A DNA stretch of 64,000 nt from positions 6,596 to 70,595 of the forward strand of contig JAVRLK010000001.1 in NCBI GenBank assembly GCA_031961545.1, read 5' to 3'. The DNA is from Thermoplasmatota archaeon (GTDB lineage Archaea; Thermoplasmatota; Thermoplasmata; Thermoplasmatales; ARK-15). Position 1 is the stretch's first letter; the number at the start of each line of letters is the position of its first letter. The notes below the pieces were generated by a model that saw nothing but the letters and a program-made list of their open reading frames with translations, searched no databases and was not told where the DNA came from. Position numbers and translations under genes: made by a program. Shown here in pieces: positions 4,644-48,534 of the stretch.

Positions 4644-4732
4644 CAATGAAAATAATAGCATACAATATAAGAATGATAATAGTCCTAAATGATTCTGGAA
4701 TTATTTTTATTGTAGAGGTTTTCTACAGAGCT
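4644..4732 (+). mobile_element. solo terminal remnant (about 89 bp) of the IS5-like element found intact at 44945-45949
   Basis: caatgaaaataatagcatacaatataa...ttgtagaggttttctacagagct is the reverse complement of 44945-45033 with few mismatches, including the terminal AGCTCTGTAGAAAACC. Confidence 0.85.
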
Positions 4733-30904: not shown

Positions 30905-31022
30905 CTCAAAAGCCTATTAAAAATTCATTATTTAAACATTTTACACTTTAAGTTAATGTTCATTTTCGTTAATTTTTGAAGATTAAAAGAATTTAAATAT
31001 TTCTTCAAATTACCATTTTCAA

Positions 31023-31108
31023 TGGGGAGCTTCTGAAAGAGGCTGAGAGGATTCCTGAATGAGGAATCGACCCATTGAACCTGATCCGGGTAATACCGGC
31101 GGAGGGAT
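31023..31108 (+). promoter_or_regulatory. TPP (THI-box) riboswitch
   Basis: GGGGAGC..GCUGAGA-GGAUUCC..GGAAUC-G-ACCC-AUUGAACCUGAUCCGGGUAAUACCGGCGGAGGGA matches the THI element core. Its 3' GGAGGG doubles as the SD, 6 nt before the ATG at 31114. Confidence 0.9.
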
Positions 31109-31113
31109 TAATT

Positions 31114-32358
31114 ATGGAAATAAAAAAATCGGTAAGAAAAACGGAATATCAGAAGGGACTTTTGATTTCATCCTCCATGGGTATGTTTGTCTGGGGTATT
31201 ATTGCTGCGATAGCTCCACTGACCACATCATGGCCATTCATTGAAACATTGCCAAAGATTTACGAAAGTATATTCCTTTTTTTACCAACAACATTCATGA
31301 TGATTGGTAATCTTATTTTTGGCGTTCTTGCAGATTACGTGGGCAGGAAGAGAATATATCTTACAACAATCTTTCTTTATGCTGCAGGCTTCTTTACAAT
31401 CTTTTTTGCAAATAATGTATACATTTTAGTTCTTGGTATTGCACTGAGTGAACTGGGTGTTGGTGGTGAGGAGGTTACAACTCTATCATTAATATCTGAA
31501 GATATACCTGTAGAGGAAAGAGGATTGTATCTTGTTTTTGTTCCAAACATGAACAATATTGGTAGCACAGTCATTGCCTTCATATTCCTTTACTTTTATT
31601 CTTCATCAATATATATACAAAAATTATATTTTGTTGGTGTAGCACTATTTGCAATTTCCATTGCAGTTATTACAAGATACAGGGTTCCAGAATCTTTCAG
31701 ATGGCTTAGGGATGTAGGTAAAAATAAGGAAGCAATTGAAGAAATGAAAAAAATATCACTCACACCTGAACCAAAGAAGGTAAAAGCACCAAGTTTCGTG
31801 CCAACTCTCTTATTCCTCGGTGTACTTGGAATTTCACAGTATTTAACTTTTGGTCTCATGGCATATATAATTGGACCTTACTATTTCCCACAAAATAGCA
31901 GTTTGATAATTTTCATGGCATCTCTTGGTGCATCGGTTGCTGGCTTTATAGCCATGTATGCAATAAATATAAGCAGGAAAATTTTCGCACTGTTCTCCTA
32001 CTTTGGTGGTTTTATTACAACAATACTCATACTTTATTTGTTTAACATCTTTGAAAATTTCTATATATTCCTGATAATGCTTTTCATAAACATGATGTTT
32101 TCTGAATTTGCATGGGCAACAAGGACAACACTTGAACCTGAACTTTTCCCCACAAAAATAAGATCCACCGCTATTGCACTAATCAGAATTTTCCCAATGA
32201 TATCATATATATTTTCAGTTTTTTTCACAGCCACATTTACTTTACAGCAATTTATAATTTACAATATTGTTCTCTGGGGCATCGGGGCGATCTTTACTTT
32301 GATATGGTATTTCATTGGAATTGAAACAAAAGATATCAGTATGGACTTCATTCAATAA
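31114..32358 (+). CDS. MFS-type transporter, riboswitch-controlled (candidate thiamine or precursor transporter)
   Basis: About 12 predicted TM helices and an MFS loop DYVGRKR. The start was moved to the ATG at 31114 because the tracked start (31075) lies inside the riboswitch. Confidence 0.75.
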   Translation: MEIKKSVRKTEYQKGLLISSSMGMFVWGIIAAIAPLTTSWPFIETLPKIYESIFLFLPTTFMMIGNLIFGVLADYVGRKRIYLTTIFLYAAGFFTIFFANNVYILVLGIALSELGVGGEEVTTLSLISEDIPVEERGLYLVFVPNMNNIGSTVIAFIFLYFYSSSIYIQKLYFVGVALFAISIAVITRYRVPESFRWLRDVGKNKEAIEEMKKISLTPEPKKVKAPSFVPTLLFLGVLGISQYLTFGLMAYIIGPYYFPQNSSLIIFMASLGASVAGFIAMYAINISRKIFALFSYFGGFITTILILYLFNIFENFYIFLIMLFINMMFSEFAWATRTTLEPELFPTKIRSTAIALIRIFPMISYIFSVFFTATFTLQQFIIYNIVLWGIGAIFTLIWYFIGIETKDISMDFIQ

Positions 32359-33150: not shown

Positions 33151-33194
33151 CGTTTTAATTATTTCTCGACTGTATATAAAACTTTGTAAAATAT

Positions 33195-33528
33195 AGTTCT
33201 GGGAAAAACATCTATAATAAAAAGTAAATCCAGAATCATTTTTGAATAATATTCTCCCATATATTATATGCTATTGTTTTCATTGTAATTTCTTTTTCAA
33301 ATCTTTTTGTAATTATTGATCCCACAAAGGATCCTTTTTTCTGAATTAAAAATTACACTGTATCAACAATCAGTCTTCCATTTTATTATTCAGGTAAATG
33401 CCTTTTCATCCTATTCCTGTTTTCTAAGTTGGTAGATTTATTGGAACATTTTCATTTATTCCGGGTTTTATTGCAAAAAAACAAAATTTTTTATCATTAT
33501 TTTCAATGTTTTTTTATTCTTTTGAATC
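33195..33528 (-). mobile_element. degraded remnant (about 330 bp) of the IS5-like element (end plus transposase C-terminal region)
   Basis: Collinear by eye with 44945-45290 at roughly 70-75 percent identity. For example, agttctgggaaaaacatctataataaaaa aligns with agctctgtagaaaacctctacaataaaaa, and caggtaaatgccttttcat with caggcaaatgccttttcat. Confidence 0.7.
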
Positions 33529-33534
33529 TTGAAT

Positions 33535-33702
33535 ATGACCAAAAATGATAAGATAGTTTTACACGTAAGAATTACTGGAAAAGCTAAAAGATTCGTTTCA
33601 TTTCAAAAATTTATAAGATACGTTGGAAAGTTCTATAAACTATGGATCGCAACAAGGGAGGAGATAGCAAGGTACTGGATTAAAAATTATAAAAAATTTT
33701 AA
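33535..33702 (+). pseudogene. C-terminal fragment of a polysaccharide deacetylase (PuuE-like) gene
   Basis: IVLHVRITGKAKRFVSFQKFIRYVGKFYKLWIATREEIARYWIKNY resembles the conserved C-terminus of that family. Only 55 codons remain, abutting the IS remnant. Confidence 0.4.
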
Positions 33703-35795: not shown

Positions 35796-37631
35796 CTTCT
35801 CAACGTTCACAAAAGTTGTGTTAACTGCTGATACACGACCGTATTGTTCCTGGACCTCATCGGTTGTAAGATAATTCACATTCCACCCATATATGCTCGG
35901 CCATGATCCTTTATAAATTACAATGCACTTTTCCTTGACACTTTCATCAACCTTCACCCTTGTTTTTATGCTTCCAAATTCATTGTAAATCCTCACAGGA
36001 TCATTATCTTTAATCCCCAGAATAAAAGCATCTGATGGATTCATATGTGCGAATGTATCGAATGAATAAAGATTGTTGTGTTGGCTTGATATACCCTGCA
36101 CATGTGTTGGACTGAGCAATCTAAATCCATTATTTTCATATTTTCTGTAATTTTCAAGATCCCTTAAAACAGAGTTCAGATTCACATTTATTTTATTATT
36201 TATTCTTTCTACTTTTATAAAACCATCCTTGAAGAATTTTTCTTCATCCAGGTTTGCCCTTCTAAGTATATTTTTGATTATTGTCTTTTCGTCCTCAAAA
36301 AGGTATGGATCCTTAAGATCAAGCTTCCTGGCAAGTTCAACAAACAGATCATGGTTTGATTTTGCCTCACCCATGGGATTGAAAATTTTCTGATTGTAGT
36401 TAAGATAATCATGGTAATAGGAATCAACAATATCCTCATGCTCAAAAAATGTTGTTGCGGGCAAAAATATATCGGAATAAAGGCCCGTATCCGTCATGTA
36501 AATATCATGAACAACAACGAAAATATCCTCATCCATCAAAACTTTCCTCAATAAATTTTGGTTTGAAAGTGAAACAAGGGGATTATGGTTGTATACTATC
36601 AACATTTTTATGTTGTTTTTTATAATTTCCCTTCCAAGATCAGCCTGGTTTATTATTTTCCTTTTATCGTTTTCACCGGAAACATATGTGTAATCGATTC
36701 TATGTTTTGCATCATAGATGAACCTGCCCTCCTGTCCGATTATTGCAAGAAGGTATGCTATCATCTTTACAGCAGTTGCACCATAAAGGTTTCTCTGAAA
36801 ACCGTAACCAATATGGACAACAATTGGTTTCAGCGTTATAAGGTCATCAACAAATTCCTCAATTATTTTTTTATCAACACCTATTATTTTTTCCATTCTT
36901 TCAGGATCGTGATCAAAAGCATATTTCTTTGCTGGTCCTATATCATAACCCTTTTTATGTAGAATGTTCAACATGGTGAGGATAAGGTCAACATCCGTTC
37001 CAACCTTCAATCTAACATGGACATCTGAAGATTTTGCACTCTCCGTTATTAAAGGATCAACAACATATATTTTCCCTGATGATAGTTTTGCCATTCTCCA
37101 TCCATGTACATTTGTCCATGCTGGATTTATACCCCAGTAAACAACAAGTTTTGAATTTTTAATTTCCTCAGGATCCACACCTATTGATGTTCCAAAAATT
37201 TCCTTGAGTGCAAGAGAACCTGCCTCATCGCATATTGAATGGTTAAGTTTTGCAAAACCCAGATAGTTAAAAAGTCTTTGAGGGAAATGGTATGAGATTA
37301 TTCCCCTATTACCCGCATACTCAACAGGTAAAATACTATCTGGACCATATTCCTCCATAATTTCCTTTATTTTTCTGGATAAAACATCAAGGGCATAATC
37401 CCAGGTTATTCTTCTGAATTCACCCGAACCCCTTTTTCCAGTTCTTTCCATTGGATAAAGAACCCTGCCATTGTAATGCGCATCAACAAAATGTTTGGAC
37501 TTAAGGCATAAAAATCCGGATGTGATGGGATGGTTTCTGTTCCCTGTTATTTTTAATCTATTGTTCTCAAATATGCTTATTATTGAACAGGAATCGTAAC
37601 AGTCCTTTGGACAGGCCGAATAATATTGCAT
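35790..37631 (-). CDS. molybdopterin oxidoreductase (DMSO reductase/MopB superfamily), cytoplasmic
   Basis: N-terminal FeS motif CPKDCYDSC...C, 613 aa, no Tat signal and no in-frame TGA. Confidence 0.75.
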   Translation of the reverse strand: MQYYSACPKDCYDSCSIISIFENNRLKITGNRNHPITSGFLCLKSKHFVDAHYNGRVLYPMERTGKRGSGEFRRITWDYALDVLSRKIKEIMEEYGPDSILPVEYAGNRGIISYHFPQRLFNYLGFAKLNHSICDEAGSLALKEIFGTSIGVDPEEIKNSKLVVYWGINPAWTNVHGWRMAKLSSGKIYVVDPLITESAKSSDVHVRLKVGTDVDLILTMLNILHKKGYDIGPAKKYAFDHDPERMEKIIGVDKKIIEEFVDDLITLKPIVVHIGYGFQRNLYGATAVKMIAYLLAIIGQEGRFIYDAKHRIDYTYVSGENDKRKIINQADLGREIIKNNIKMLIVYNHNPLVSLSNQNLLRKVLMDEDIFVVVHDIYMTDTGLYSDIFLPATTFFEHEDIVDSYYHDYLNYNQKIFNPMGEAKSNHDLFVELARKLDLKDPYLFEDEKTIIKNILRRANLDEEKFFKDGFIKVERINNKINVNLNSVLRDLENYRKYENNGFRLLSPTHVQGISSQHNNLYSFDTFAHMNPSDAFILGIKDNDPVRIYNEFGSIKTRVKVDESVKEKCIVIYKGSWPSIYGWNVNYLTTDEVQEQYGRVSAVNTTFVNVEKL

Positions 37632-37710
37632 AAATTTAAAAAGTGATGTAAATTAAAAATTTTACTCTTAGAGACAATCAATTTTTATAATAAAATACAT
37701 TTCAACAGTT

Positions 37711-38061
37711 ATGAACTGGCCCCTTGTAATGGATATTTTGAAAAATTCCGAGAACAGTTTCCTGATAAAAATCAGGACTAAAAAGGGGCCCATATCCCTT
37801 GAAAAATTCATAAGAAAAAAGTTCTCAAAGATGGGTGAATTCTATCTTTTAAACCACTGGTCCCCCTATTCAAAGATAGGTGTTATTGAAATAATATTTG
37901 GAAACAGAAAAATATTCATAGAGTGGATTGCGAATAAGGAGAAGGAAGAAATTATTGATGTGAAGAAAATAGATAATTTTGATATAGAGGGATTTGAAGA
38001 ATACCTTTCATCCCTTGGTGTTGAGAGCAGCGTTCTCAGACTTATGCGCTGGGAATTATAA
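37711..38061 (+). CDS. hypothetical protein (116 aa)
   Basis: Clean ORF. Its last 50 or so codons are duplicated at 45950-46108. Confidence 0.55.
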   Translation: MNWPLVMDILKNSENSFLIKIRTKKGPISLEKFIRKKFSKMGEFYLLNHWSPYSKIGVIEIIFGNRKIFIEWIANKEKEEIIDVKKIDNFDIEGFEEYLSSLGVESSVLRLMRWEL

Positions 38062-38155
38062 AAAATTTATTTTAAAAGTAGCGGGGGGTGGATTTGAACC
38101 ACCGATCTACGGGTTATGAGCCCGTCGGGATTTCCTGGCTACCCTATCCCACTTT
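37898..38155. repeat. direct repeat copy 1 (3' end of the hypothetical gene plus a tRNA-iMet copy)
   Basis: Aligns with 45950-46201 with a few indels. The tRNA part is identical except for three substitutions. Confidence 0.9.
38079..38153 (-). tRNA. tRNA-Met(CAT), initiator-type, variant copy with an imperfect acceptor stem
   Basis: AGTGGGATAGGGTAGCCAGGAAATCCCGACGGGCTCATAACCCGTAGATCGGTGGTTCAAATCCACCCCCCGCTA. It has A1:U72 and GGG/CCC in the anticodon stem. U3:G70 is a wobble pair and A7:C66 is a mismatch. Confidence 0.7.
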
Positions 38156-38284
38156 GCCATTTTCACTGCCTGAAGTTAGGGATAGATAGATTGAGATAGA
38201 AGTACTAAAAAAGAAGGTTAATGCCTGATTACAAGGCAATTCAAACTTTTTAGCGTTTATTTTTGAAAATGGTAAAAATGGCTT

Positions 38285-40060
38285 TTAATAAAGCAAAACG
38301 GAAACGATTATTACGATCATGAAGGAAACGAGCATGTATACCGTATACCAAGCAATCGAACTGTTCATGAACTTTCTTGTGACTATGAAGCACATTTTCC
38401 TATAGCCTCTCCCAGTGGAAACCATAACATACCAGAAAATATCAGTCACTGAAATGGGCTGGTTATCACTTCTGATCTTTGTCCTGAGAATCCTGCGCAG
38501 CATCAATCTTATGTTGTTTGCATATGCGAACGATGTGTATTCCCCCGTTACTGGTCTTCCACTGTTCCAGACATCTGCCGTCCTGACCTTCGGTTTTCTG
38601 AAAACAGCATACGCCACTAGGGAAAAAATCAGAATAAGTAAGATAATATAATCGGGCGACAGCAGACCAAAATCTGCCACTGAAAACCTGGATACTATCG
38701 CGAAGCCATTGAAGACAAGCACTGATGGTACGCCACCCCTGAATATTTCTGGAATAAAAATGATGGAGATTGCAAACAGGACAAGAATCAGAGACCCAAT
38801 ACTGAACAAGGTAACAGCCTCTATCTTCCTGGCTTTACCCTTCCTTGCCCTGAATAATACAGAAAAAGAAAGGACCTTCATCATAGATCCCGTGGCCATT
38901 CCTTCGGATATTGCTATCACTGATCCAACAATTATTGCAATAATACCTATATAGCCCCCAAGGAAAGCCTGCATGAAAAATGATTCAAGGAGCATCCAGA
39001 CCGCAAGTCCGCCTATTGTTGGAAAGAGACCTGACAGAGACAAGGTGGAGAGAAGAGTACCAAGCCTCATCCATCTGTCTTCTGCAAACCCTGCCTCCCC
39101 AAAGTACTCCTTTCCAGTACTTCCTATTGATAGGAAGAGACCTGTTTTTGACAGGGCATGTGACAGGGTAAAGATAATTACTGTTATGAGAACGAATTCC
39201 TTCAGGATTGCATTATCTGATACGAGATACAGGCCAAAAGCCGCTAAAATTGCGGCCTGATTCTCTATCGTGCTGAATCCACCGAGCATCTTCATTTCCT
39301 CTGAAATGTAGGCATATATTGATACGAAAATGATCGAAATACTTGCTATTATCAGGAAAATTATTCCTATGTAAATCAGTCCAGAGCTGGCTGCACTCAG
39401 GAATATCATTTTATTTATTAGGTACACCCCCATCAATGTCATTGTTGCGCTGAATACAGCGGATGCATTTGCCGGTGCATTTCCATGCGCTATGGGAAGC
39501 CACTCACTTATCATAAAGGGGAACATGCCCATCTTGATCAGCGATCCCAACGATACAAGAAGAAGCGGTACTAAGCTTCTAACTTGAATAAAGCCAAATG
39601 AAGAATTTCCAGACATTACAAATGATGATATGGCACCGGCAATGATCAGCACTGTACTAAATTCGCTGAATGCCATAAAGGTGAAGGCGGGCCCTTTCCG
39701 ATTCTTATTCAATGCAACTATGAGATAAGATGAAATGGACATTATTTCCCATCCAGAAATTAGTAAAAGGTAGTTGTTTGAAACAAGTATTATTGCCATC
39801 CCAAGAACAGTTAGTGACAAAAGTGGTGCCAGCCATTTTCCATAATTTTCTCCGTAAGATAATGAATATATGCCTGCAAAAAACCAGACCATCGCAGCTA
39901 TGATGGAATAATAAGAAAGATAATCACACGGTACATACTGTGTAACTCCAAAAATCAAGGAAGAAACTGAAAGTATCAGGTAGGATGCCTTCCTGTTGAA
40001 TATTCCGACTAGTGCTGCAATTCCGAATAGTACAGGCCCAAGATAGGAAAGCATAATCAT
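38285..40060 (-). CDS. antiporter-like membrane subunit (HyfB/HycC/NuoL family)
   Basis: 591 aa and polytopic. It has LLISGWEIMSISSYLIV and LPIAHGNAPANASAVFSATM motifs. Confidence 0.75.
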   Translation of the reverse strand: MIMLSYLGPVLFGIAALVGIFNRKASYLILSVSSLIFGVTQYVPCDYLSYYSIIAAMVWFFAGIYSLSYGENYGKWLAPLLSLTVLGMAIILVSNNYLLLISGWEIMSISSYLIVALNKNRKGPAFTFMAFSEFSTVLIIAGAISSFVMSGNSSFGFIQVRSLVPLLLVSLGSLIKMGMFPFMISEWLPIAHGNAPANASAVFSATMTLMGVYLINKMIFLSAASSGLIYIGIIFLIIASISIIFVSIYAYISEEMKMLGGFSTIENQAAILAAFGLYLVSDNAILKEFVLITVIIFTLSHALSKTGLFLSIGSTGKEYFGEAGFAEDRWMRLGTLLSTLSLSGLFPTIGGLAVWMLLESFFMQAFLGGYIGIIAIIVGSVIAISEGMATGSMMKVLSFSVLFRARKGKARKIEAVTLFSIGSLILVLFAISIIFIPEIFRGGVPSVLVFNGFAIVSRFSVADFGLLSPDYIILLILIFSLVAYAVFRKPKVRTADVWNSGRPVTGEYTSFAYANNIRLMLRRILRTKIRSDNQPISVTDIFWYVMVSTGRGYRKMCFIVTRKFMNSSIAWYTVYMLVSFMIVIIVSVLLY

Positions 40061-40725
40061 TTCTCCTCCGTATTTCTTTTATTTTCTTTGTAATGACCCT
40101 TATCATTTCTCATAACAGCGTTAAGGGCAGCCAATATTGTATACGGAGAGGGAGGGCATCCAGCGATCTCAACATTATATTTTTCTCTATCCAATGGTGG
40201 TTCTCCAATGATCCCACCGGATAATGCACATGTTCCTAGTGCAATGATGAGTTTTGGTTCCGGCATAGCATCATAGGCTCTTTCAAGAGCCTCTTTCATG
40301 CCAGAAGTCATTGTTCCCATAACAATGATAGCATCGGCATGGCGGGGTGTGTTGACCACAAATATACCTAGACGATTTGCATCGTACTGTGGCGAGAATA
40401 TGCTGAAAAACTCTGTGTTGCACGCCCCGCAGGTACCGGAATCTATCACAAATACATGGAATGAACGCTTGAACGTTTTATTATAACTTTTTATTGTGAA
40501 CATATTCTGATCACCGGTTGGCTGTAAATCTGGCAGGCATCTACGGCAGAATATGCATTTCTCTCTGATCCATAAACCGTTGTTTATAGCGTTCACAGGG
40601 CATTTATCACTTCCATTTCCTACAAGGCTGGATGGCCATAGCGGTGCCTCAACAGATTCTACTGTTGGGAATTTTTCCGTTTTTATTCCCTTCCTTATCC
40701 CATTGAGAAACCATATGTTGCTCAT
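40057..40725 (-). CDS. NuoB/HycG-like small subunit fused to a degenerate HycF/NuoI-like ferredoxin segment
   Basis: NuoB cluster ligands are present: DSGTCGACN, LGTCALSG and GCPPSP. The N-terminal 70 aa carry DKCPVNAI...CIFCRRC. Confidence 0.8.
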   Translation of the reverse strand: MSNIWFLNGIRKGIKTEKFPTVESVEAPLWPSSLVGNGSDKCPVNAINNGLWIREKCIFCRRCLPDLQPTGDQNMFTIKSYNKTFKRSFHVFVIDSGTCGACNTEFFSIFSPQYDANRLGIFVVNTPRHADAIIVMGTMTSGMKEALERAYDAMPEPKLIIALGTCALSGGIIGEPPLDREKYNVEIAGCPPSPYTILAALNAVMRNDKGHYKENKRNTEEK

Positions 40726-41891
40726 CTTATCATCACCGCAAGTTCAGAAATCCATATTCCAAAACTTTCCCAGTTGAAATGGAAATCAGTGAATATATTT
40801 CCTGCCATAGATTTTATAAACGCATCAATATTAATCAACGAGGGGGACGCAATCTGCAGATCCTTTAGAATCCCATTTTCTATGTTTACGTAGTAGAAAA
40901 GGTCACCCTGAGGGCTCTCAATTCTAGCTGCGCCTTCTCCACTCATATGCGAAATAGGGGCAGCATCCGAATTTCCGCTGTATTCTATGGCTCTTGATAT
41001 TATTTCTGCAGATTCCAAGATTTCCTGACTTCTCACATAGAACCTTCCAAATGCATCAGGTTCATCAAATAAGAATGGCCTGAAACCGAGTTCTGAGTAT
41101 GGAAGATCTTTGGTGTCAATTCTAGCATCTATTTCCATCCCGGCTGCTCTGGCCGCCGGTCCGGTTAAGTTCCCTTCTTTGATTATTCCATTGTTCTGAA
41201 GTCTGTTCAGAAATATCTTTGACCGTAAAAGCCCATCAAATATTCTGGAAAAATCGTCTCTAATCCTTTTAACGGCGGAAGCTATTTTAGCTGTTTTCAA
41301 ATTGCAACCGCCTATAGAAGAAGCTGAAAAGAAATATCTATGGCCTGCTGCCCGGGAGATGATCCTTGACATTTCTTCCTGGAGGTATGCTATTTGATTC
41401 TGTGGAACGCCGAAACTCGCTGATTCGCACAGCCGTTTCACCACTTCCAGATTACTTCTCATCCTTTCCAGCTCGATCATTATCAATCGTGAATAGCGTA
41501 CACGTTCAGGTACTTCAATTCCAAGCGCATCTTCAACGGCAATTTCGAAGGCTATGGCATGTGATGCGGCATGAAAGCCGTTGATCCTCTCCACCATAAG
41601 CAGAGCATCACGTGGATCCAGTCCTATAATCTTCAATGTCCGTTTTTTGACGTATGGATCAACGTCGACGTGCTTTATCAGTTCACCTGGAGTATGTATA
41701 TCAAAAGCTACGGATTCAAGTAATCCACCTGTTGCGGGCCCATATTCAAAGGTGAACTCTCCCGGAAAATTCCAGTAGGTTTCCCAGGAAATGTCTATTC
41801 TCTTATCCGATATGGTTCTCTCGTATATTGAATATTTTTCGGTATTCCCGATGAATCTACCTTCAGGTTGGCCAAATCTATAATATCTCAC
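40722..41891 (-). CDS. NuoD/HycE-like large subunit lacking the NiFe-ligand cysteines
   Basis: MVERINGFHAASHAIAFEIAVEDALGIEVPERVRYSRLIMIELERM aligns with the hydrogenase L1 region R-x-C-G-x-C-x3-H, but reads N-G-F-H. The C-terminus has no D-P-C-x2-C. Confidence 0.8.
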   Translation of the reverse strand: MRYYRFGQPEGRFIGNTEKYSIYERTISDKRIDISWETYWNFPGEFTFEYGPATGGLLESVAFDIHTPGELIKHVDVDPYVKKRTLKIIGLDPRDALLMVERINGFHAASHAIAFEIAVEDALGIEVPERVRYSRLIMIELERMRSNLEVVKRLCESASFGVPQNQIAYLQEEMSRIISRAAGHRYFFSASSIGGCNLKTAKIASAVKRIRDDFSRIFDGLLRSKIFLNRLQNNGIIKEGNLTGPAARAAGMEIDARIDTKDLPYSELGFRPFLFDEPDAFGRFYVRSQEILESAEIISRAIEYSGNSDAAPISHMSGEGAARIESPQGDLFYYVNIENGILKDLQIASPSLINIDAFIKSMAGNIFTDFHFNWESFGIWISELAVMIR

Positions 41892-43224
41892 CGAACATCA
41901 CCACCAGATAAAAAACCCCGATAAAAAGGGGAATTGAGGACGAAATTATGGAAATGACCTGCATGATTCCCTTATTCTCCCTACCTGGATGTGAATCGCC
42001 GAACACCATTCCCGTTACGTTATAATTCATGGAGATGAATGCTGCGGTCAGAAATATTATTACTATGATGAATTGTGCATACATGTGCAGGGAAAAGATA
42101 TCAGCAAGTATTAGGAACTCACCGAAGAATGTCCCAAACGGAGGTGCGCCGGTAACAGCCAGTGAAGACATTATCAGGGATGTGGATGTGTAGGGCATGG
42201 ATCTTGCCATGCCACTGATCTCTTCTATCTTCTTCTTTCCTGTGAATTTCAAAATATTTCCGGAAGAATAAAAAGCGGCAGCCTTTCCAAAACTGTGGGA
42301 AAGCAGGATAAGCAGTGCACCTGTCAGCCCAAGTGGTCCGCCTACAGCCAGGCCAAGCAGAGCCAGGTTCATGTTCTCCATTGAGGAATATGCAAACATC
42401 CTCTTGTACCTAGTCTGGTAGCCGATAAATATTGATGCCGCCGCTATGGAAATCACAGCAAACCAGACATATAGAGACCTTAACGGTTCAATTTCATAAA
42501 CCATATACAGTACATACAGAGCTGTTGGGAGGAGAACACCTGATAACATGGCACTTACGGGTGATGGGGCCTCACTGTGCGCATCCGGAAGCCAGGTATG
42601 TACAGGAAAGACACCAACCTTTGTGCCGAAACCTATCAGGGCAATTGAAACGGCAAGAACCATTATTCTTGAATGCACATGTGAGGCTATAGAAACAGAG
42701 ACAGAAAGTGTTCCGAGCGTATAGTAAATCAGTATGATGGAAATGAAGGCAAAAGTTATCCCTACGGAAACTATAATGATATATCTCCACGTTGCCTCCA
42801 GAGAAGTTTCAGTTTTTTCCGTTATTAAGAGAAGTGCAGATGAAATTGTAGTTGCCTCCAGTCCAACCCACATCAGGCCATAGTTGTTGACCTCAAGCGA
42901 AAATAGCATGGATGAGGTGAACAGGTCAAGGAGGAGGTAATAACTGGATTCACTGATTCCCATTCTGTTGATTCCTTTCAGGTACTCTGTCGAATAAATA
43001 GTGGAGAGAAGGTACACCGAAAGCACCATTATTATGAAAAACATTGTTGAATTCTGTACAAAAAAGAACCCCACCTCCGGGCGGATAAAATACATGGCGC
43101 TCCCGGCAATTAAATCTATGGAGGCTACAATCACCGAGGCCTGTTTTATCCAGTTACGATAAAATATTCCGGCTGTCGCTGGTAGCAGAATAACCATAAT
43201 CGCAAGAAAATCGCCGTAGGTCAT
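41878..43224 (-). CDS. antiporter-like membrane subunit (HyfF/HyfD/NuoN-M family)
   Basis: GLMWVGLEATTISSALLL and VHTWLPDAHSEAPSPVSAMLSGVLL. Confidence 0.8.
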   Translation of the reverse strand: MTYGDFLAIMVILLPATAGIFYRNWIKQASVIVASIDLIAGSAMYFIRPEVGFFFVQNSTMFFIIMVLSVYLLSTIYSTEYLKGINRMGISESSYYLLLDLFTSSMLFSLEVNNYGLMWVGLEATTISSALLLITEKTETSLEATWRYIIIVSVGITFAFISIILIYYTLGTLSVSVSIASHVHSRIMVLAVSIALIGFGTKVGVFPVHTWLPDAHSEAPSPVSAMLSGVLLPTALYVLYMVYEIEPLRSLYVWFAVISIAAASIFIGYQTRYKRMFAYSSMENMNLALLGLAVGGPLGLTGALLILLSHSFGKAAAFYSSGNILKFTGKKKIEEISGMARSMPYTSTSLIMSSLAVTGAPPFGTFFGEFLILADIFSLHMYAQFIIVIIFLTAAFISMNYNVTGMVFGDSHPGRENKGIMQVISIISSSIPLFIGVFYLVVMFGEIL

Positions 43225-43874
43225 CCTTTCAACTCCTCCAAAGATTCATGGCTAAATTTTTCCAGCACAACGATAGATGATACTACCACAAGTGCCAGGA
43301 CGTCAAGAAAAACACTTACATCTATAATTAAGGGTATTGGCATAAGGAAGATTGCAAATAGTACAAGAGAATTTTCCTCCTCAACATAGCCGATTATCTG
43401 AGTAAATGTTATCTTTCTGGAAGCTATCAAAAATAGCCCCTGAAAGAAAAGCGCTATGGGGAAGACAAGTACAGCAGAATTGCCGGAATCCAATAGAAAC
43501 GAACGAAGTATAATTCCGGAGAATGCTACGAAATATATTACGAACACGGAAGGGACAATGAACATGAGGTCAAGAAGGAAAAGATAAGGAAGATTGACAT
43601 TCTTTTCATAGAGGTACACTTTCTCTTTAGGTACACTTTTCTCGAGAAAGTAGTTGACCAAAAAAGCCCTCAGGACAATTATCAGCACCCCGAGTATAAA
43701 AAAGGCGTATAATCTTTCTTCCCATCCTATAATGAATGCTATAATGGCTATAAGGGTTGACTGAACTGATTGTCCCCTTATCATTGAAACGATGAATTCC
43801 TGTCCCTGAATATAAAAACCGGAAATCATTATGATACTGGCAATCATATATACAACCATATCTATGTTGTTCAT
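43221..43874 (-). CDS. HyfE-like small membrane subunit
   Basis: 217 aa with about 6-7 TM helices. Its position between the NuoH-like and NuoN-like genes matches hyf operons. Confidence 0.55.
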   Translation of the reverse strand: MNNIDMVVYMIASIIMISGFYIQGQEFIVSMIRGQSVQSTLIAIIAFIIGWEERLYAFFILGVLIIVLRAFLVNYFLEKSVPKEKVYLYEKNVNLPYLFLLDLMFIVPSVFVIYFVAFSGIILRSFLLDSGNSAVLVFPIALFFQGLFLIASRKITFTQIIGYVEEENSLVLFAIFLMPIPLIIDVSVFLDVLALVVVSSIVVLEKFSHESLEELKG

Positions 43875-44815
43875 GGTATCACCTCAGATAATATGAGGAA
43901 AAGTATGGAAAACGTAAATGCCGCAGCAAGATAGTCCATTACCCTGAACAACCGAATCTTGGCGAGAGTAGTCTCAACAACAAGCACAATGAATATGAGC
44001 AGGAGCCATTTTGCAATCATTACGAAAGGATTGATCAGGAAATATGGTGATGATGAAAAAAGTCCCCAGGGGACGAGGAAAACATTAAGGAGAACGGAAC
44101 CAAGAAGGTATTGCTTTATGTATGATGACCATTTAACTATGGCAAGGAGCTTGCCACTGTATTCATAATTCATGCCTTCATCTATCATTCCAAGTTCCTG
44201 CAGTCCAGAACTTTCTATCGGTATCTTCCCCGTTTCATATAAGAATAGCATAAAAAATGCCAGAGCTGAGAATATATGCGGGAGTGAAAGGTTCTCAAGA
44301 GGGTGTGATATTAGAAAAGCACTGGTAATATACGGATTATTTGTACCAGTTAACAGTGAAACCGCAAAAAAAACTGTAATTAGCGTTCCCTCAGAAAGAA
44401 AATTGAAGGACATTGACCTTGATACTCCCAGGGCTGCGTAATTGCTTCCTGAATCCATTGCTGCAGCATTCTTCAGGAATGCAGCAAGAGAGAAAAGTAT
44501 TGCACCACCGAGAAAATCACCGGATGCAGTAAAGAATATAGGCACGGGAATCACAACCGGTATCATAATCGCTATAAGGGAGTATATTCCGAATAAAATG
44601 TTTGGAACGTACTTGAAAAGTAATCCCGATCCACTCGGTATTATAGTCACTTTATGGAAAAGTTTCCAGAGATCGTAATAGGGCTGGAATATACTGGGGC
44701 CTCTGCGGGATTCAACCATGCTTTTGAATTTTGCAAGTATTCCCGCAAAAAACGGCGCACTAAGAACAACAAAAAAATATTGCGTAAGCGTTTCCACCAG
44801 AGTTAACGTATTCAT
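43871..44815 (-). CDS. NuoH/HycD/HyfC-like membrane subunit
   Basis: ESRRGPSIFQPYYDLWKLFHK is typical of HycD/NuoH. The protein is polytopic and 314 aa. Confidence 0.8.
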   Translation of the reverse strand: MNTLTLVETLTQYFFVVLSAPFFAGILAKFKSMVESRRGPSIFQPYYDLWKLFHKVTIIPSGSGLLFKYVPNILFGIYSLIAIMIPVVIPVPIFFTASGDFLGGAILFSLAAFLKNAAAMDSGSNYAALGVSRSMSFNFLSEGTLITVFFAVSLLTGTNNPYITSAFLISHPLENLSLPHIFSALAFFMLFLYETGKIPIESSGLQELGMIDEGMNYEYSGKLLAIVKWSSYIKQYLLGSVLLNVFLVPWGLFSSSPYFLINPFVMIAKWLLLIFIVLVVETTLAKIRLFRVMDYLAAAFTFSILFLILSEVIP

Positions 44816-44816
44816 A

Positions 44817-44840
44817 TTAAATCACCAGTTAAATCACCAG
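44817..44840 (-). repeat. exact 12-bp tandem duplication carrying the Shine-Dalgarno sequence of the first operon gene
   Basis: The minus strand reads CTGGTGATTTAA-CTGGTGATTTAA-T-ATG. Confidence 0.9.
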
Positions 44841-44929
44841 TTTCAGGTAGGCGTTATCAGCCAGCACAAAAACTGGCGGTTTACTTAGGTGGAAACGCCA
44901 TTCCACGGATTTCACTACATTTATATGAA

Positions 44930-45857
44930 CTATATAAATTTATCAGCTCTGTAGAAAACCTCTACAATAAAAATAATTCCAGAATCGTTTAGGACTACTA
45001 TTCTCCTTATATTGTATGCTATTATTTTCATTGCAATTTCTTTTTCAGATAGTTCTGGAATTCTTGATCTCACAAATGATCCACTTTTTCTTTTTATTAC
45101 TGAATGCACCGTTTCAACTATCGGCCTTCTATTGTATTCTTCAGGCAAATGCCTTTTCATTCTTTTTCTATGTTCTCCTCTAGTACGATGTATTGGAACA
45201 TCTTTATTTCTTGCAGGTATTATTGCCATAAGACCATATTTTTTGGCAATGATATGATTTTCTTCTGAATCATATCCCCTGTCACCAATAATGATCCTGA
45301 ATTTTCCAATTATTTCCCTATCCATATTTTCCAATGTTTTCTTGAACTCTTTTGAATCATGAATCTCTCCAAAGTAAGCATCATATGAAACAATCAGTTG
45401 TGAATGATCATCCACACATATTGTTGTTTTAACATACTTTTTCTTAACCTTCCTTCCAAAATCATCAAGCCTTTTATCGTAGTGAAAAGAATGATAATCC
45501 ACAGAATATCCAGTACTGTCAATTACCATTCTGTTTCCTAACATTCCCATAAAAAATTTCAGGATTTGATTGAAAACAAATGTAATGAGTGCTTTATCAA
45601 TCCTTTCTGAAAATTTCTGAATTGTTGTAAAATGTGGTATTTCAGAGAGAGAATAAAAGCTCAACAAATGCAGGATTTGATGCTATTATTTCAATAACAT
45701 CACGATAACTTAGATTATTCCAGTTTTTGTAAATAAATATGACAAAAAGCTGGTAGATCATATATTTCTTCTTGGAAAATTTGGAAGAATAAGCTAGAAG
45801 AAGTCTTTTGGATATAATTACAGCCTGTTCGATAAATTTATATTCATGTGATTTCAT
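44930..45857 (-). CDS. IS5-family DDE transposase encoded in two overlapping frames (+1 shift needed)
   Basis: The 71-aa and 245-aa ORFs overlap at 45642-45667. DDE elements are VIDSTGY, IIGDRGYDSEE and NRRPIVETVHSVIKRK (R-x3-E-x6-K). Confidence 0.75.
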
Positions 45858-45949
45858 TAAGAATTAGGGGGATTTTTGTCATATTATGTCTTCCATAAAT
45901 CCGACTAAATCCCCTAAATAAATACTTTACTTAGGATTTCTACAGATGT
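44945..45949 (-). mobile_element. IS5-family insertion sequence (about 1 kb)
   Basis: Imperfect terminal inverted repeats: AGCTCTGTAGAAAACC on the left and ACATCTGTAGAAATCC as the reverse complement of the right end. It carries a DDE transposase. No target-site duplication is evident. Confidence 0.8.
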
Positions 45950-46108
45950 TGGAGAATAGAAAAATATTCATGGATTGCAAATAAGGAGTAGGATGAAATT
46001 ATTGATGTGAAGAAAATAGATAATTTTGATATAGAAGGATTTGAAGAATACCTTTCATCCCTTGGTGTTGAAAGCAGTGTTCTCAGACTTATGCGCTGGG
46101 AATTATAA
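45950..46108 (+). pseudogene. truncated duplicate of the 3' end of gene 37711-38061
   Basis: ...EIIDVKKIDNFDIEGFEEYLSSLGVESSVLRLMRWEL, with an internal stop upstream. It starts exactly at the IS right end. Confidence 0.8.
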
Positions 46109-46124
46109 AAAATTAATTTAAAAG

Positions 46125-46199
46125 TAGCGGGGGGTGGATTTGAACCACCGATCTACGGGTTATGAGCCCGTCGGGATTTCCTGGCTACCCCACCCCGCT
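46125..46199 (-). tRNA. initiator tRNA-Met (CAT)
   Basis: AGCGGGGTGGGGTAGCCAGGAAATCCCGACGGGCTCATAACCCGTAGATCGGTGGTTCAAATCCACCCCCCGCTA. The 7-bp acceptor stem is perfect with A1:U72. Three G:C pairs close the anticodon stem. Confidence 0.9.
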
Positions 46200-46236
46200 T
46201 TTCAACCTTTAATGAAATTTTCCCTTAATAAGTTTT

Positions 46237-48534
46237 TCATTCGGAGATTTTCTGCTGACTTATTTCCTCCTTTCTGGATTTTATATGTGAAAGTATTATT
46301 TCCTCCATTTCCCTGTCGCTTACACCCTTGTAAAGAACCTGTTCCCTCTTGCTCCTGTCCCTGTATATGGTTATCCCCTTGCATTTAAGCTTGTATGCAA
46401 GCATAAATGCCTTTTCCACTTCATCTATTGTTGCCTCATTCCTCATATTTATTGTTTTACTTACAGCATTATCCGTATGTTTCTGAAAAACTGCCTGCAT
46501 AAGGACATGCCATTGATAATCTATATCGTGTGAAGTTAAGAATATCCTTTTTATATCCTCGGGTAAATTCAGATGCTGTATTGATCCCGTTCTTGAAACC
46601 TCCCTCATTATATCCTCTGAGTAAAGATTCCTTTTTCTCAATTCTTCCTCAAAAAGCTGGTTGACCTCAAGAAGTTCTGTTCCCTCAAGCACCTGCCTTA
46701 TGAACACAAGACCAAAAAGCGGTTCAATTCCCGATGACGTACCCGCAATAATTGAAATACTGCCCGTTGGTGCTATGGTTGTTGTTGTTGCATTCCTCAT
46801 CTTTATTCCCCTCTCGTACCATATTGACCTGTCCCATGCATAGAATGTCCCCTTTGTTTTCGCAAGATCCACGCTCGCTTCATGGCTCACCTTTTCAATG
46901 AATTCCATAACCTTTTCGGCAATATCAAGGGCCTCCTTTGATGCATATGATACCTTTAGTTTAATAAGCATCTCAGCAAATCCCATAACACCCAGACCAA
47001 TTTTCCTTGTCTGTTTTGTCATATATTCTATCTGCGGTAAGGGATAATTGTTTGCATCTATTACATTGTCAAGGAAATGAACTGCTATCCTTATAACCTT
47101 CCTTAACTTTTCCCAGTTTATCGATCCATTCTCAACAAACTTTGATAGGTTTATTGATCCAAGGTTGCAAGACTCGTATGGTAATAAAGGCTGTTCACCG
47201 CATGGGTTTGTTGCCTCAATTTCACCAAGGTATGGTGTTGGATTTTTTCTGTTTATTTCATCAATGAATATAACACCAGGATCGCCTGTTTTCCATGCCT
47301 GTGATACTATAAGGTTCCATATCTGTCTTGCCGGAACCCTTGAAACAACCTCCCTGTTCCTTGGATTTATTAATTCAAAATCTTCATCATTCTCAACAGC
47401 GTCCATGAATTGATCGGTAACGGCAACGCTAAGGTTAAAATTCTTAAGTTTTCCCTCAAAACCCTTTGCATTTATGAACTGAAATATATCAGGGTGATCA
47501 ACCCTCAGAATACCCATGTTTGCGCCCCTTCTCCTTCCACCCTGCTTTATAACATCAGTTGATACATCGAATATCTGCATGAATGAAACGGGTCCTGACG
47601 CAACACCCATGGTTGATCCAACAATATCACCCTGTGGCCTCAACTTTGAGAATGAAAATCCTGTACCTCCTCCTGATTTGTGTATCAATGCTGTGTATTT
47701 AAGAGCATTGTAAATGCTTTCAATTGAATCTTCAATTGGTATAACAAAACAGGCACTCAACTGCCCAAGACTTGTATTTGCATTCATGAGTGTTGGTGAA
47801 TTTGGTATGAACTGTAAATTCACCATTATTTCATAAAACCTTTTTGCAATTTCCTCGATTTTGTTCCATTTTTCATCAAGTATTTTCAAAACATCATTGA
47901 AGGATACCTTCATTGCCCTGTCGGAATTGAGTGAAGAATATGCCCTCTGCAACATTTCCCTTTCATACTTTGACAATGTTACGTTCCTTGGAACATAATC
48001 TGAATAAACATCCCTTTCCTTCTGTTTTTTGTTTATGTCAAAAACATCCTCATCGTAAAGTATATCTACCAAAGCTACGTATCTTGCAACCCTCCAGAAC
48101 ATTTCCCTTGGTGTTTCTATTATCTCCCCTTTCTCATTTTTCAAAAGATACCTTGCCTCAAGAACTCTTACAGCATTTATTGTTAATTTCAGATCATCCT
48201 TTATGCCAAAAAGATATTTCATTTCCCTTATTTCCTTTCTTTTCTGTCTGTAAAGAATATACGCCTTTGCTGTTTTTACAAGACCCCTCTCCATCAATGT
48301 TTCCTCTACAAGATCCTGTATATCCTCAACCCCCGGTACCCCATTTTTGAATTTCTCAATCAATTTATTTTCAACAATCTCCCCTATTTTTTCACTCTCT
48401 TCATCAATATTTTCAACTTCCTTTGTTTCATTAAGAGCCTTTTTTACAGCATTAACAATCTTTGATCTGCTGTAAAGTACGTAATCTCCGTTCCTCTTCC
48501 TGACAAGACTTATCATATTTAAATATATATTCAA
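46237..48534 (-). CDS. nrdJ: class II (adenosylcobalamin-dependent) ribonucleotide reductase with an N-terminal ATP-cone
   Basis: ATP-cone VRKRNGDYVLYSRSKIVNAVKKAL, SPTLMNA, SACFV and TNPCGEQPLLPYESCNLGSINL. Its 765 aa leave no room for an intein. Confidence 0.9.
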   Translation of the reverse strand: MNIYLNMISLVRKRNGDYVLYSRSKIVNAVKKALNETKEVENIDEESEKIGEIVENKLIEKFKNGVPGVEDIQDLVEETLMERGLVKTAKAYILYRQKRKEIREMKYLFGIKDDLKLTINAVRVLEARYLLKNEKGEIIETPREMFWRVARYVALVDILYDEDVFDINKKQKERDVYSDYVPRNVTLSKYEREMLQRAYSSLNSDRAMKVSFNDVLKILDEKWNKIEEIAKRFYEIMVNLQFIPNSPTLMNANTSLGQLSACFVIPIEDSIESIYNALKYTALIHKSGGGTGFSFSKLRPQGDIVGSTMGVASGPVSFMQIFDVSTDVIKQGGRRRGANMGILRVDHPDIFQFINAKGFEGKLKNFNLSVAVTDQFMDAVENDEDFELINPRNREVVSRVPARQIWNLIVSQAWKTGDPGVIFIDEINRKNPTPYLGEIEATNPCGEQPLLPYESCNLGSINLSKFVENGSINWEKLRKVIRIAVHFLDNVIDANNYPLPQIEYMTKQTRKIGLGVMGFAEMLIKLKVSYASKEALDIAEKVMEFIEKVSHEASVDLAKTKGTFYAWDRSIWYERGIKMRNATTTTIAPTGSISIIAGTSSGIEPLFGLVFIRQVLEGTELLEVNQLFEEELRKRNLYSEDIMREVSRTGSIQHLNLPEDIKRIFLTSHDIDYQWHVLMQAVFQKHTDNAVSKTINMRNEATIDEVEKAFMLAYKLKCKGITIYRDRSKREQVLYKGVSDREMEEIILSHIKSRKEEISQQKISE

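Follow-up and report, generated by a model that had tools for sequence, protein, structure and literature searches.

An operon with a fluoride riboswitch inserted at the initiator tRNA locus of a Thermoplasmatota archaeon, with a long target duplication and no recombinase gene

Introduction

How did a block of genes come to lie between two copies of an initiator tRNA gene in an archaeal chromosome? The question is raised by a locus in a 64,000-nt stretch of a Thermoplasmatota archaeon (assembly GCA_031961545.1, contig JAVRLK010000001.1, positions 6,596 to 70,595 of the forward strand; the whole stretch is called the window below). The lineage is known from hot-spring metagenome-assembled genomes (MAGs), and the window itself stems from a short-read MAG. 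At this locus, a 7.8-kb block consisting of a six-gene operon and a decayed IS5-family insertion sequence (IS) is enclosed by two direct repeats, each of which holds a whole tRNA gene. We compared the locus with related genomes and found that the block was inserted and that a long piece of the target was duplicated, an event that we attribute with moderate confidence to illegitimate, microhomology-type recombination rather than to catalysis by an integrase or a transposase. The operon appears to be native to the order and to have been repositioned repeatedly.

Results

Direct repeats and empty sites

A preliminary description, made from the sequence alone, had stated that positions 37898–38155 and 45950–46201 align throughout. 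A repeat search and a MAFFT alignment confirmed this and gave repeats of ~255 bp that are ~94% identical, with left borders at 37894/37898 and 45946/45950 (37894–38155 and 45946–46201 at their widest). As had also been described, each repeat is composed of the end of a hypothetical gene (its last 55 codons), a 16-nt spacer and a complete tRNA-Met(CAT) on the minus strand. The intact form of the gene (hereafter hyp; 116 codons, 37711–38061, plus strand) runs into the left repeat, and its function is unassigned: the protein matched no Pfam or NCBIfam family, and an exact look-up of the window's protein gave no match. The right repeat contains a fragment of hyp (45946–46107) that is truncated at codon 62 and frameshifted through a 5-bp deletion; the right repeat therefore carries the derived copy of hyp. 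Along the minus strand, between 46.2 and 38.1 kb, the elements follow one another as tRNA, hyp fragment, IS, TATA-like box, riboswitch, six genes, operon tail and the second tRNA copy (tRNA*), beyond which lie the intact, convergent hyp and a molybdopterin oxidoreductase gene (MoOR). The right-hand neighbor of the target site is nrdJ, which encodes a B12-dependent ribonucleotide reductase (46237–48534, minus strand; NCBIfam NF005010, 1178 bits).

The preliminary description had predicted that relatives would show an empty site consisting of the hypothetical gene, tRNA-iMet (the initiator tRNA-Met) and nrdJ. Such a site, with the order MoOR, hyp, one intact tRNA-iMet and nrdJ, was found in four related assemblies (93–96.5% identical), namely L001 (JAVRLI010000015; 93% identical), L013 (JABEBW010004104; 96.5% on the right flank), L014 (JGI Ga0079637_100040, a 54-kb contig; 95.8% on the right flank) and L015 (Logan; about 95%). 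The segment that is doubled in the window is single copy in each of them, and their tRNA-iMet (4/4) is identical to the window's right copy. L001 and L013 have orthologs of hyp with 96% identity, and L014, L015 and a further relative, L011, possess the gene too. The last of these, a JGI contig with 96.5% identity across window positions 36920–44944, has the left junction in common with the window (operon, tail, tRNA*, hyp, MoOR), where it was assembled independently; upstream of its operon stands a different IS, at which the contig ends. The empty sites with a single intact tRNA in four relatives, together with the left junction in L011, thus identify an insertion with a long target duplication.

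Outside the first 12 bases of the tRNA, the left and right repeats differ by 15 events, including a 5-bp and a 1-bp indel, both of which are deletions in the right copy; the longest run of identity between the two is 74 nt. An alignment with the relatives showed that 7 of the 15 differences concern sites at which other lineages vary as well; here the right repeat groups with the empty-site L013 and the left with L011. The right repeat additionally has private changes (the 5-bp deletion and substitutions) that occur in no empty-site strain. A supposed mutation cluster at its edge was dropped as a candidate, being a population haplotype common to L011. Identity between the window and L011 is mosaic (91–99.5%), which suggests frequent homologous recombination between lineages.

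Three side observations concern these relatives. Identity to L011 was 98–99.5% over 42.3–44.9 kb, 92–97% in the rest of the operon and ~93.5% in the MoOR flank, and the five lineages were otherwise about equidistant. L013 carries an insertion of ~420 bp between MoOR and hyp (positions 697–1117 of its contig) without a counterpart in the window, L001 or L011; it contains two 68-nt direct repeats (712–779 and 1049–1116, 82% identical) and is possibly a small non-autonomous element. The contig L016 (JGI Ga0213457_155204, positions 1358–1405), from the same metagenome as L011, breaks ~30 nt into the tRNA, which is consistent with the tRNA acting as a branching repeat in that assembly graph.

Junctions of the inserted block

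The IS (44945–45945, minus strand; PF01609 and PF05598) encodes an IS5-family DDE transposase that scored 123.5 bits against NCBIfam NF033579, under the cut-off of 140, because its open reading frame (ORF) is split into frames of 71 and 245 aa; intact relatives are single ORFs of 311–320 aa. The closest relative on record is 90% identical. The inner inverted repeat is intact (AGCTCTGTAGAAAACC), whereas the outer end (..CTACAG|ATGTTGG) has lost the terminal GAGCT (4–5 bases). This GAGCT is present at the outer IS end of the relative L002 and at the contig end of L007, and the inner ends keep AGCT (window) or GGCT (L002). At the right joint, the truncated outer end is fused to hyp codon 62 with 0–1 nt of shared sequence. 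The preliminary description had let the IS end at 45949, abutting the repeat without a target-site duplication; the end lies at 45945, and the direct contact was borne out, as was the lack of a target-site duplication (the flanks AGCT.. and ATGT.. are not repeated).

Transposition as a composite or one-ended element was rejected in view of the single IS, its truncated outer end and the missing target-site duplication. No second IS copy was found between 37.9 and 46.2 kb; a BLAST of the IS against the window returned only distant relics at 33.2 and 4.6 kb. Visual inspection showed no likeness between the end of the tail and the inverted repeat of the IS. The two relics, of the same family (33161–33543 and 4644–4732), are 76% and 94% identical to the IS of the block. 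At the first of them, ~345 bp in the window correspond to 2.2 kb in L001 (1587–3815), which there encodes two ORFs of 470 and 295 aa; in L014 the site is occupied by an IS relic together with three small ORFs.

At the left joint, the operon tail runs directly into position 1 of tRNA*. In L007 and L004, which carry the operon at another position, the tail ends in ...GAAAATGCAAAAGCGGGGT and is followed by unrelated DNA. This end includes an exact 11-nt match (AAAAGCGGGGT) to the native context of the tRNA (AAA followed by AGCGGGGT), which may be either the microhomology used at the joint or a relic of the unit leaving a tRNA site. Pfam and NCBIfam searches of all real ORFs detected no site-specific recombinase in or beside the block, whose 7.8 kb are taken up entirely by the six operon genes and the IS. 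The earlier preference for IS-mediated rearrangement or integration at the tRNA locus over simple transposition was thus right about an inserted block that is not a simple transposition; no integrase or attachment site (att) supports the integration, however, and the role of the IS, a single frameshifted element with a truncated outer end, is circumstantial.

The two tRNA copies

ARAGORN and Rfam identified the left copy (tRNA*, initiator-type tRNA-Met(CAT); 38078–38153, minus strand) with 53.4 bits and the right copy (46124–46199, minus strand) with 62.0 bits. Direct reading of the sequence showed the initiator hallmarks in both, that is, the CAU anticodon, A1:U72 and G29–G31:C39–C41. The right copy has an intact acceptor stem, as had been described, and retains its native upstream region next to nrdJ. 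The U3, A7 and A9 previously noted in the left copy were read there as well, so that it has a U3:G70 wobble, A7:C66 and an acceptor stem that is not fully paired. The suspicion that this copy is impaired gained support from its lower score, from a predicted fold in which the cloverleaf is lost and from its upstream side, where the operon tail with a T6 run takes the place of the TATA-like region found at the right copy. What had been counted as two initiator tRNA genes is better described as one functional gene and a pseudogene: the right copy is, to judge from its sequence, the functional initiator tRNA-Met gene, and tRNA* is most likely a pseudogene that arose as a by-product of the insertion, its inactivity being deduced from the features above.

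The ortholog of tRNA* in L011 has A2, A7 and A12 (5΄ starts: intact gene AGCGGGGTGGGG, window tRNA* AGTGGGATAGGG, L011 tRNA* AACGGGATGGGA). We deduced five changes in total, all of them transitions (G-to-A or C-to-T) within the first 12 nt. Between the window and L011, tRNA* differs at 4/12 positions in this part and at 0/64 in the rest (Fisher's exact test, p = 4e-4), and in both lineages positions 13–76 equal those of the functional gene (window 38078–38153, L011 7500–7575). The tail adjoining tRNA* is 11.5% different between the two. No change is compensated by a change of its partner, indicating that acceptor and D-stem pairing has not been maintained. The simplest idea for the conserved body would be gene conversion from the functional copy that fails near the edge of homology, although the spacer directly beside the tRNA is not homogenized; constraint is also a candidate. 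A derivation of the first 12 nt from the donor tail was rejected by parsimony (7 changes, including convergent transversions, versus 5 transitions).

Composition and changing positions of the operon

The preliminary description had reported a GC contrast of ~42 versus ~35%. The contrast was reproduced (41.7% in the operon versus 34.7% in the flanks, which range over 34.6–34.9%; 31.3% in the IS), and the operon is the highest-GC 6.5-kb stretch of the window, the GC content at third codon positions (GC3) of its six genes being 0.39–0.48, compared with 0.30 ± 0.05 for the other 40 ORFs. A reading of the contrast as a sign of foreign DNA did not hold. With one exception at most, the operon has a GC content of 41–44% wherever it is located, Thermoplasma volcanium included, in flanks of 33–39% (L003, L007, L012 and T. 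volcanium) as well as in flanks that at ~45% are as GC-rich as the operon (L002 and L010). The contrast therefore belongs to the operon and gives no evidence of a recent foreign origin. Moreover, operon divergence (3.5–13%) parallels flank divergence (3.5–8%). A foreign origin inferred from GC content was rejected on these two grounds. Since homologs occur throughout Thermoplasmatales, with T. volcanium proteins 70–74% identical, the operon appears native to this order. Carriage by a plasmid or virus was rejected as well: viral contigs held no relatives of the operon, and plasmids gave only matches of 32% identity or less.

We distinguished at least five contexts of the operon. The first is that of the window and L011. 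In L002, a MetE-like gene, a 110-aa gene and an IS5-like element precede the operon. In L007, L008 and L004 (92.7%), the order is DnaG, SAMP2, a 370-aa gene, an IS relic, the operon, the tail, a 37-aa ORF and a 541-aa gene. In L003 and L012 (87%), the operon stands between tRNA-Leu and a zf-C2H2 gene. The neighborhoods in T. volcanium and L010 differ from all of these. The comparison indicates that the operon repeatedly changes position within the genus. A donor locus of the L007 type was not found in other lineages, the members of the cluster of the 370-aa gene all belonging to the L007 lineage.

Upstream of the operon, homology with L002, L003, L007, L011 and L012 stops at a TATA-like box (GATAAATTTATATAG; 44930–44944, minus strand), at window position 44944. 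This box is the putative operon promoter. The shared sequence begins within 1–9 nt of the same base (TGGATNAAGATAAATTTATATAG) in every context (window 44930–44953, L002 4140–4160, L011 695–715, L007 5115–5135 and L003 6945–6965). Three different IS types adjoin this point; it may be a hot spot for IS insertion, or selection may keep the boundary just 5΄ of the promoter.

Genes and riboswitch of the operon

The operon (38285–44815, minus strand) encodes a complex resembling group 4 hydrogenases and complex I (Pfam; NCBIfam NF005046 and NF005042 above their cut-offs). In the order of transcription, its products are a NuoH/HyfC-like protein (314 aa), a membrane protein of 217 aa, a HyfF-like protein (448 aa), a NuoD-like protein (389 aa), a NuoB-like protein with an N-terminal Fer4 motif (222 aa) and a HyfB-like protein (591 aa), that is, the membrane arm and the NuoB/NuoD-type subunits of group 4 complexes. 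In an alignment with a PDB structure from Pyrococcus furiosus, the NuoD-like subunit (40722–41891, minus strand) has RINGFHAASH opposite RMCGICSFSH of MbhL, so that N and H stand in place of the N-terminal NiFe CxxC cysteines, and direct reading found no cysteine in its C-terminal 100 residues. Without the NiFe cysteines, the complex cannot be a NiFe hydrogenase, and the database names 'Ni,Fe-hydrogenase III large subunit' and 'formate hydrogenlyase' are, on this reading of the sequence, misnomers for this operon. The preliminary inventory of the block, a hydrogenase-like operon and an IS5-like element, stands as to the six genes and the one IS, but the complex is not a hydrogenase and a fluoride riboswitch had been missed. 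In the NuoB-like subunit, direct reading suggests that the four cluster cysteines are kept.

The riboswitch, an RF01734 aptamer in the operon leader (44841–44914, minus strand; 45.1 bits, gathering score 34), ends 26 nt ahead of the first ATG. An aptamer above the gathering score precedes the operon in 7/7 loci (window, L002, L003, L007, L009 (T. volcanium), L010 and L011). At the other end, a 129-nt 3΄ untranslated tail (38156–38284, minus strand), with a short hairpin and a T6 run, accompanies the operon in the window, L011 and L007; a simple terminator scan found no intrinsic terminator in it. Between the riboswitch and the ATG (44816–44840, minus strand) lies a 12-nt tandem duplication (CTGGTGATTTAA twice) that doubles a Shine-Dalgarno-like GGTGA and occurs in L011 too, but not in L007 or L002. 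Elsewhere in the window, a thiamine pyrophosphate (TPP) riboswitch (RF00059, 78.7 bits; 31013–31124, plus strand) lies upstream of the ORF at 31075–32358 and overlaps its mechanical start; the L014 ortholog of this ORF is a major facilitator superfamily (MFS)/sugar-transporter-type protein.

Discussion

We consider it somewhat probable that the insertion and its long target duplication arose through illegitimate, microhomology-type recombination that neither an integrase nor a transposase catalyzed, and that the operon is native and repeatedly repositioned. Starting from an ancestral order of MoOR, hyp, tRNA-iMet and nrdJ, the 7.8-kb block (decayed IS5-family element, promoter, riboswitch, operon and 129-nt tail) would have been joined directly 5΄ of the tRNA gene, leaving ~255 bp of the target (hyp codons 62–116, the spacer and the whole tRNA) on both sides. 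One joint would have formed at the 5΄ end of the tRNA, within the 11-nt AAAAGCGGGGT, with which the operon tail of another lineage likewise ends; at the other, the truncated IS end would have been fused blunt to hyp codon 62. A template switch during replication or repair that returned 255 bp behind its departure point, or an insertion at staggered breaks, would give the observed geometry, and the template switch is the mechanism that we infer.

Several observations weigh against this reading. The 11 nt of identity in L007 may have been left behind by a former tRNA* instead of being the microhomology used, the direction being unpolarized among the genomes compared. The 7 of 15 repeat differences at polymorphic sites agree better with two parental haplotypes, or with gene flow at a later time, than with a clean duplication within one chromosome, and the mosaic identity of the window and L011 (91–99.5%) cautions against a simple event on a single chromosome. 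The joint between IS and hyp is seen in one short-read assembly only. In addition, the donor locus lies outside the window, so a copy and a move look alike. Homologous exchange between lineages has therefore helped to shape the locus, either afterwards or as the Campbell-type integration of an excised circle.

Such an integration is the main rival of illegitimate recombination, though clearly the less probable of the two. A circle carrying the IS, the operon, the tail and one 255-bp segment, excised for example from another lineage via its own repeats, would have integrated by a single homologous crossover in hyp and the tRNA. Direct repeats around the insert are its expected product; the different population haplotypes of the two copies at 7 sites (the right resembling L013 and the left L011) agree with it, and the strongly mosaic identity of the window and L011 shows that homologous exchange is frequent. 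However, this model accounts for the spread of the arrangement and not for its origin, since the circle must already hold the IS/hyp and tail/tRNA joints, and the almost wholly recipient-type right copy requires a crossover within a few bases of the repeat edge.

We regard as improbable a crossover inside an IS shared by two haplotypes, one with the IS in hyp and the other with the IS and the operon between nrdJ and the tRNA. In the window as in L002, IS5-type elements do adjoin the upstream edge of the operon, relics of such elements are frequent (window 33161–33543 and 4644–4732, L014 and the end of L007), and the haplotype pattern of the repeat copies would follow. A normal insertion in hyp would nevertheless keep the outer inverted repeat and half of the target-site duplication, whereas here 4–5 bases are gone, and the model requires two rare haplotypes, neither of which was observed.

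Still less credit can be given to an assembly artefact, either a chimera of co-occurring strains or a repeat misthreaded via the IS or the 74-nt identical tRNA core, under which the repeats would not really enclose the operon on a single chromosome. A short-read MAG as the source, the co-occurrence of the lineages (L016 breaks inside the tRNA in the sample that yielded L011) and an IS/hyp joint unique to the window contig would all allow it. Against this, the left junction was independently assembled in L011, the private changes of the right copy indicate a separate physical locus, no near-identical IS copy is on record (best 90%), and a read is longer than the 74-nt core.

A classical integrase-mediated tRNA island whose integrase has since been lost is very improbable and was rejected: the location at a tRNA gene, the direct repeats, the atypical composition and the empty sites in relatives are as expected, but there is no integrase, remnant or coding space for one, the repeats comprise a whole tRNA plus 180 bp of hyp instead of a core formed by part of a tRNA, the cargo, which lacks flanking repeats in L007 or L003, is an operon of housekeeping type in this order, and viral contigs hold no relatives and plasmids only matches of at most 32% identity.

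A separate, doubtful idea is that the operon with its fluoride riboswitch forms a mobile cassette in its own right and is moved by a so far undescribed mechanism. Three findings bear on it. The operon occupies at least four positions among genomes 87–97% identical, with the upstream cut always within 1–9 nt of the same base; in three lineages its end lies in the first 8–76 nt of tRNA-iMet; and the first 12 nt of tRNA* and the adjoining tail evolve fast, while positions 13–76 are perfectly conserved in two lineages. In that case tRNA* could be a tRNA-like 3΄ element, or a recombination site recognized in trans.

Returning to illegitimate recombination as the preferred explanation, we conclude that the locus is a real but fairly ordinary rearrangement, and neither a new kind of element nor an integrase-type island. 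It offers a clean, comparatively dated archaeal case of a tRNA-flanked, compositionally odd 'island' that arose without an integrase, so such signatures do not automatically denote horizontal transfer or site-specific integration. It also shows a complex-I-like module preceded by a fluoride riboswitch moving around the chromosome in Thermoplasmatota of acid hot springs. Fluoride is especially toxic at low pH, which makes the operon a candidate fluoride/pH-stress system. In acidophiles, whose cytoplasm is acidified by the entry of hydrogen fluoride (HF), a redox module that translocates ions and is induced by fluoride would be plausible. These points are of moderate interest for archaeal genome dynamics and fluoride biology.

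Comparison with known systems

In bacteria and archaea, islands associated with tRNA genes include those of tyrosine recombinases as well as proviruses, SSV-type and TKV-type integrations among them. The present locus resembles them in its tRNA site, flanking direct repeats, distinct composition and presence or absence among close relatives. It differs in having no integrase, in its 255-bp repeats with a complete tRNA and part of a neighboring gene, in a border formed by a truncated IS end and in a cargo that is a chromosomal operon of the order. Insertion-duplications of the type produced by microhomology-mediated break-induced replication (MMBIR) or fork stalling and template switching (FoSTeS) arise by microhomology-mediated template switching or end joining. 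As in these, a distant segment was inserted, the flanking target was duplicated and no recombinase signature is present; the 11-nt identity at one joint, against 0–1 nt at the other, may be the microhomology of such an event. Unlike in these, an IS end forms one joint and the direction of the 11-nt identity is ambiguous; the mechanism itself is not known to operate in Thermoplasmatota.

With regard to the cargo, the subunit set (NuoH, two antiporter-like subunits, NuoB and NuoD) is that of group 4 [NiFe] hydrogenases, and the closest solved structure is subunit L of the P. furiosus MBH (6cfw_L, E = 5e-21). In contrast to those enzymes, N and H occupy the place of the N-terminal CxxC, and there is no C-terminal cysteine. 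Relatives of group 4 hydrogenases that lack these cysteines comprise the Ehr-type complexes, MBS and complex I. Weinberg et al. 2010 (PMC2864571) described the crcB-motif (fluoride) riboswitch from archaea and from positions upstream of 'formate hydrogen lyase' (FHL) genes, and a review (PMC11139923), citing Baker et al. 2012, places FHL among the functions most commonly associated with fluoride riboswitches. As in such operons, the aptamer here lies directly upstream of genes annotated as hydrogenase-4/FHL in 7/7 loci; unlike them, the NuoD-like subunit is devoid of the NiFe cysteines and the operon is positionally mobile within the genus. The association of the riboswitch with 'FHL' is already known; what is new is that this 'FHL' has no NiFe site and moves within a genus.

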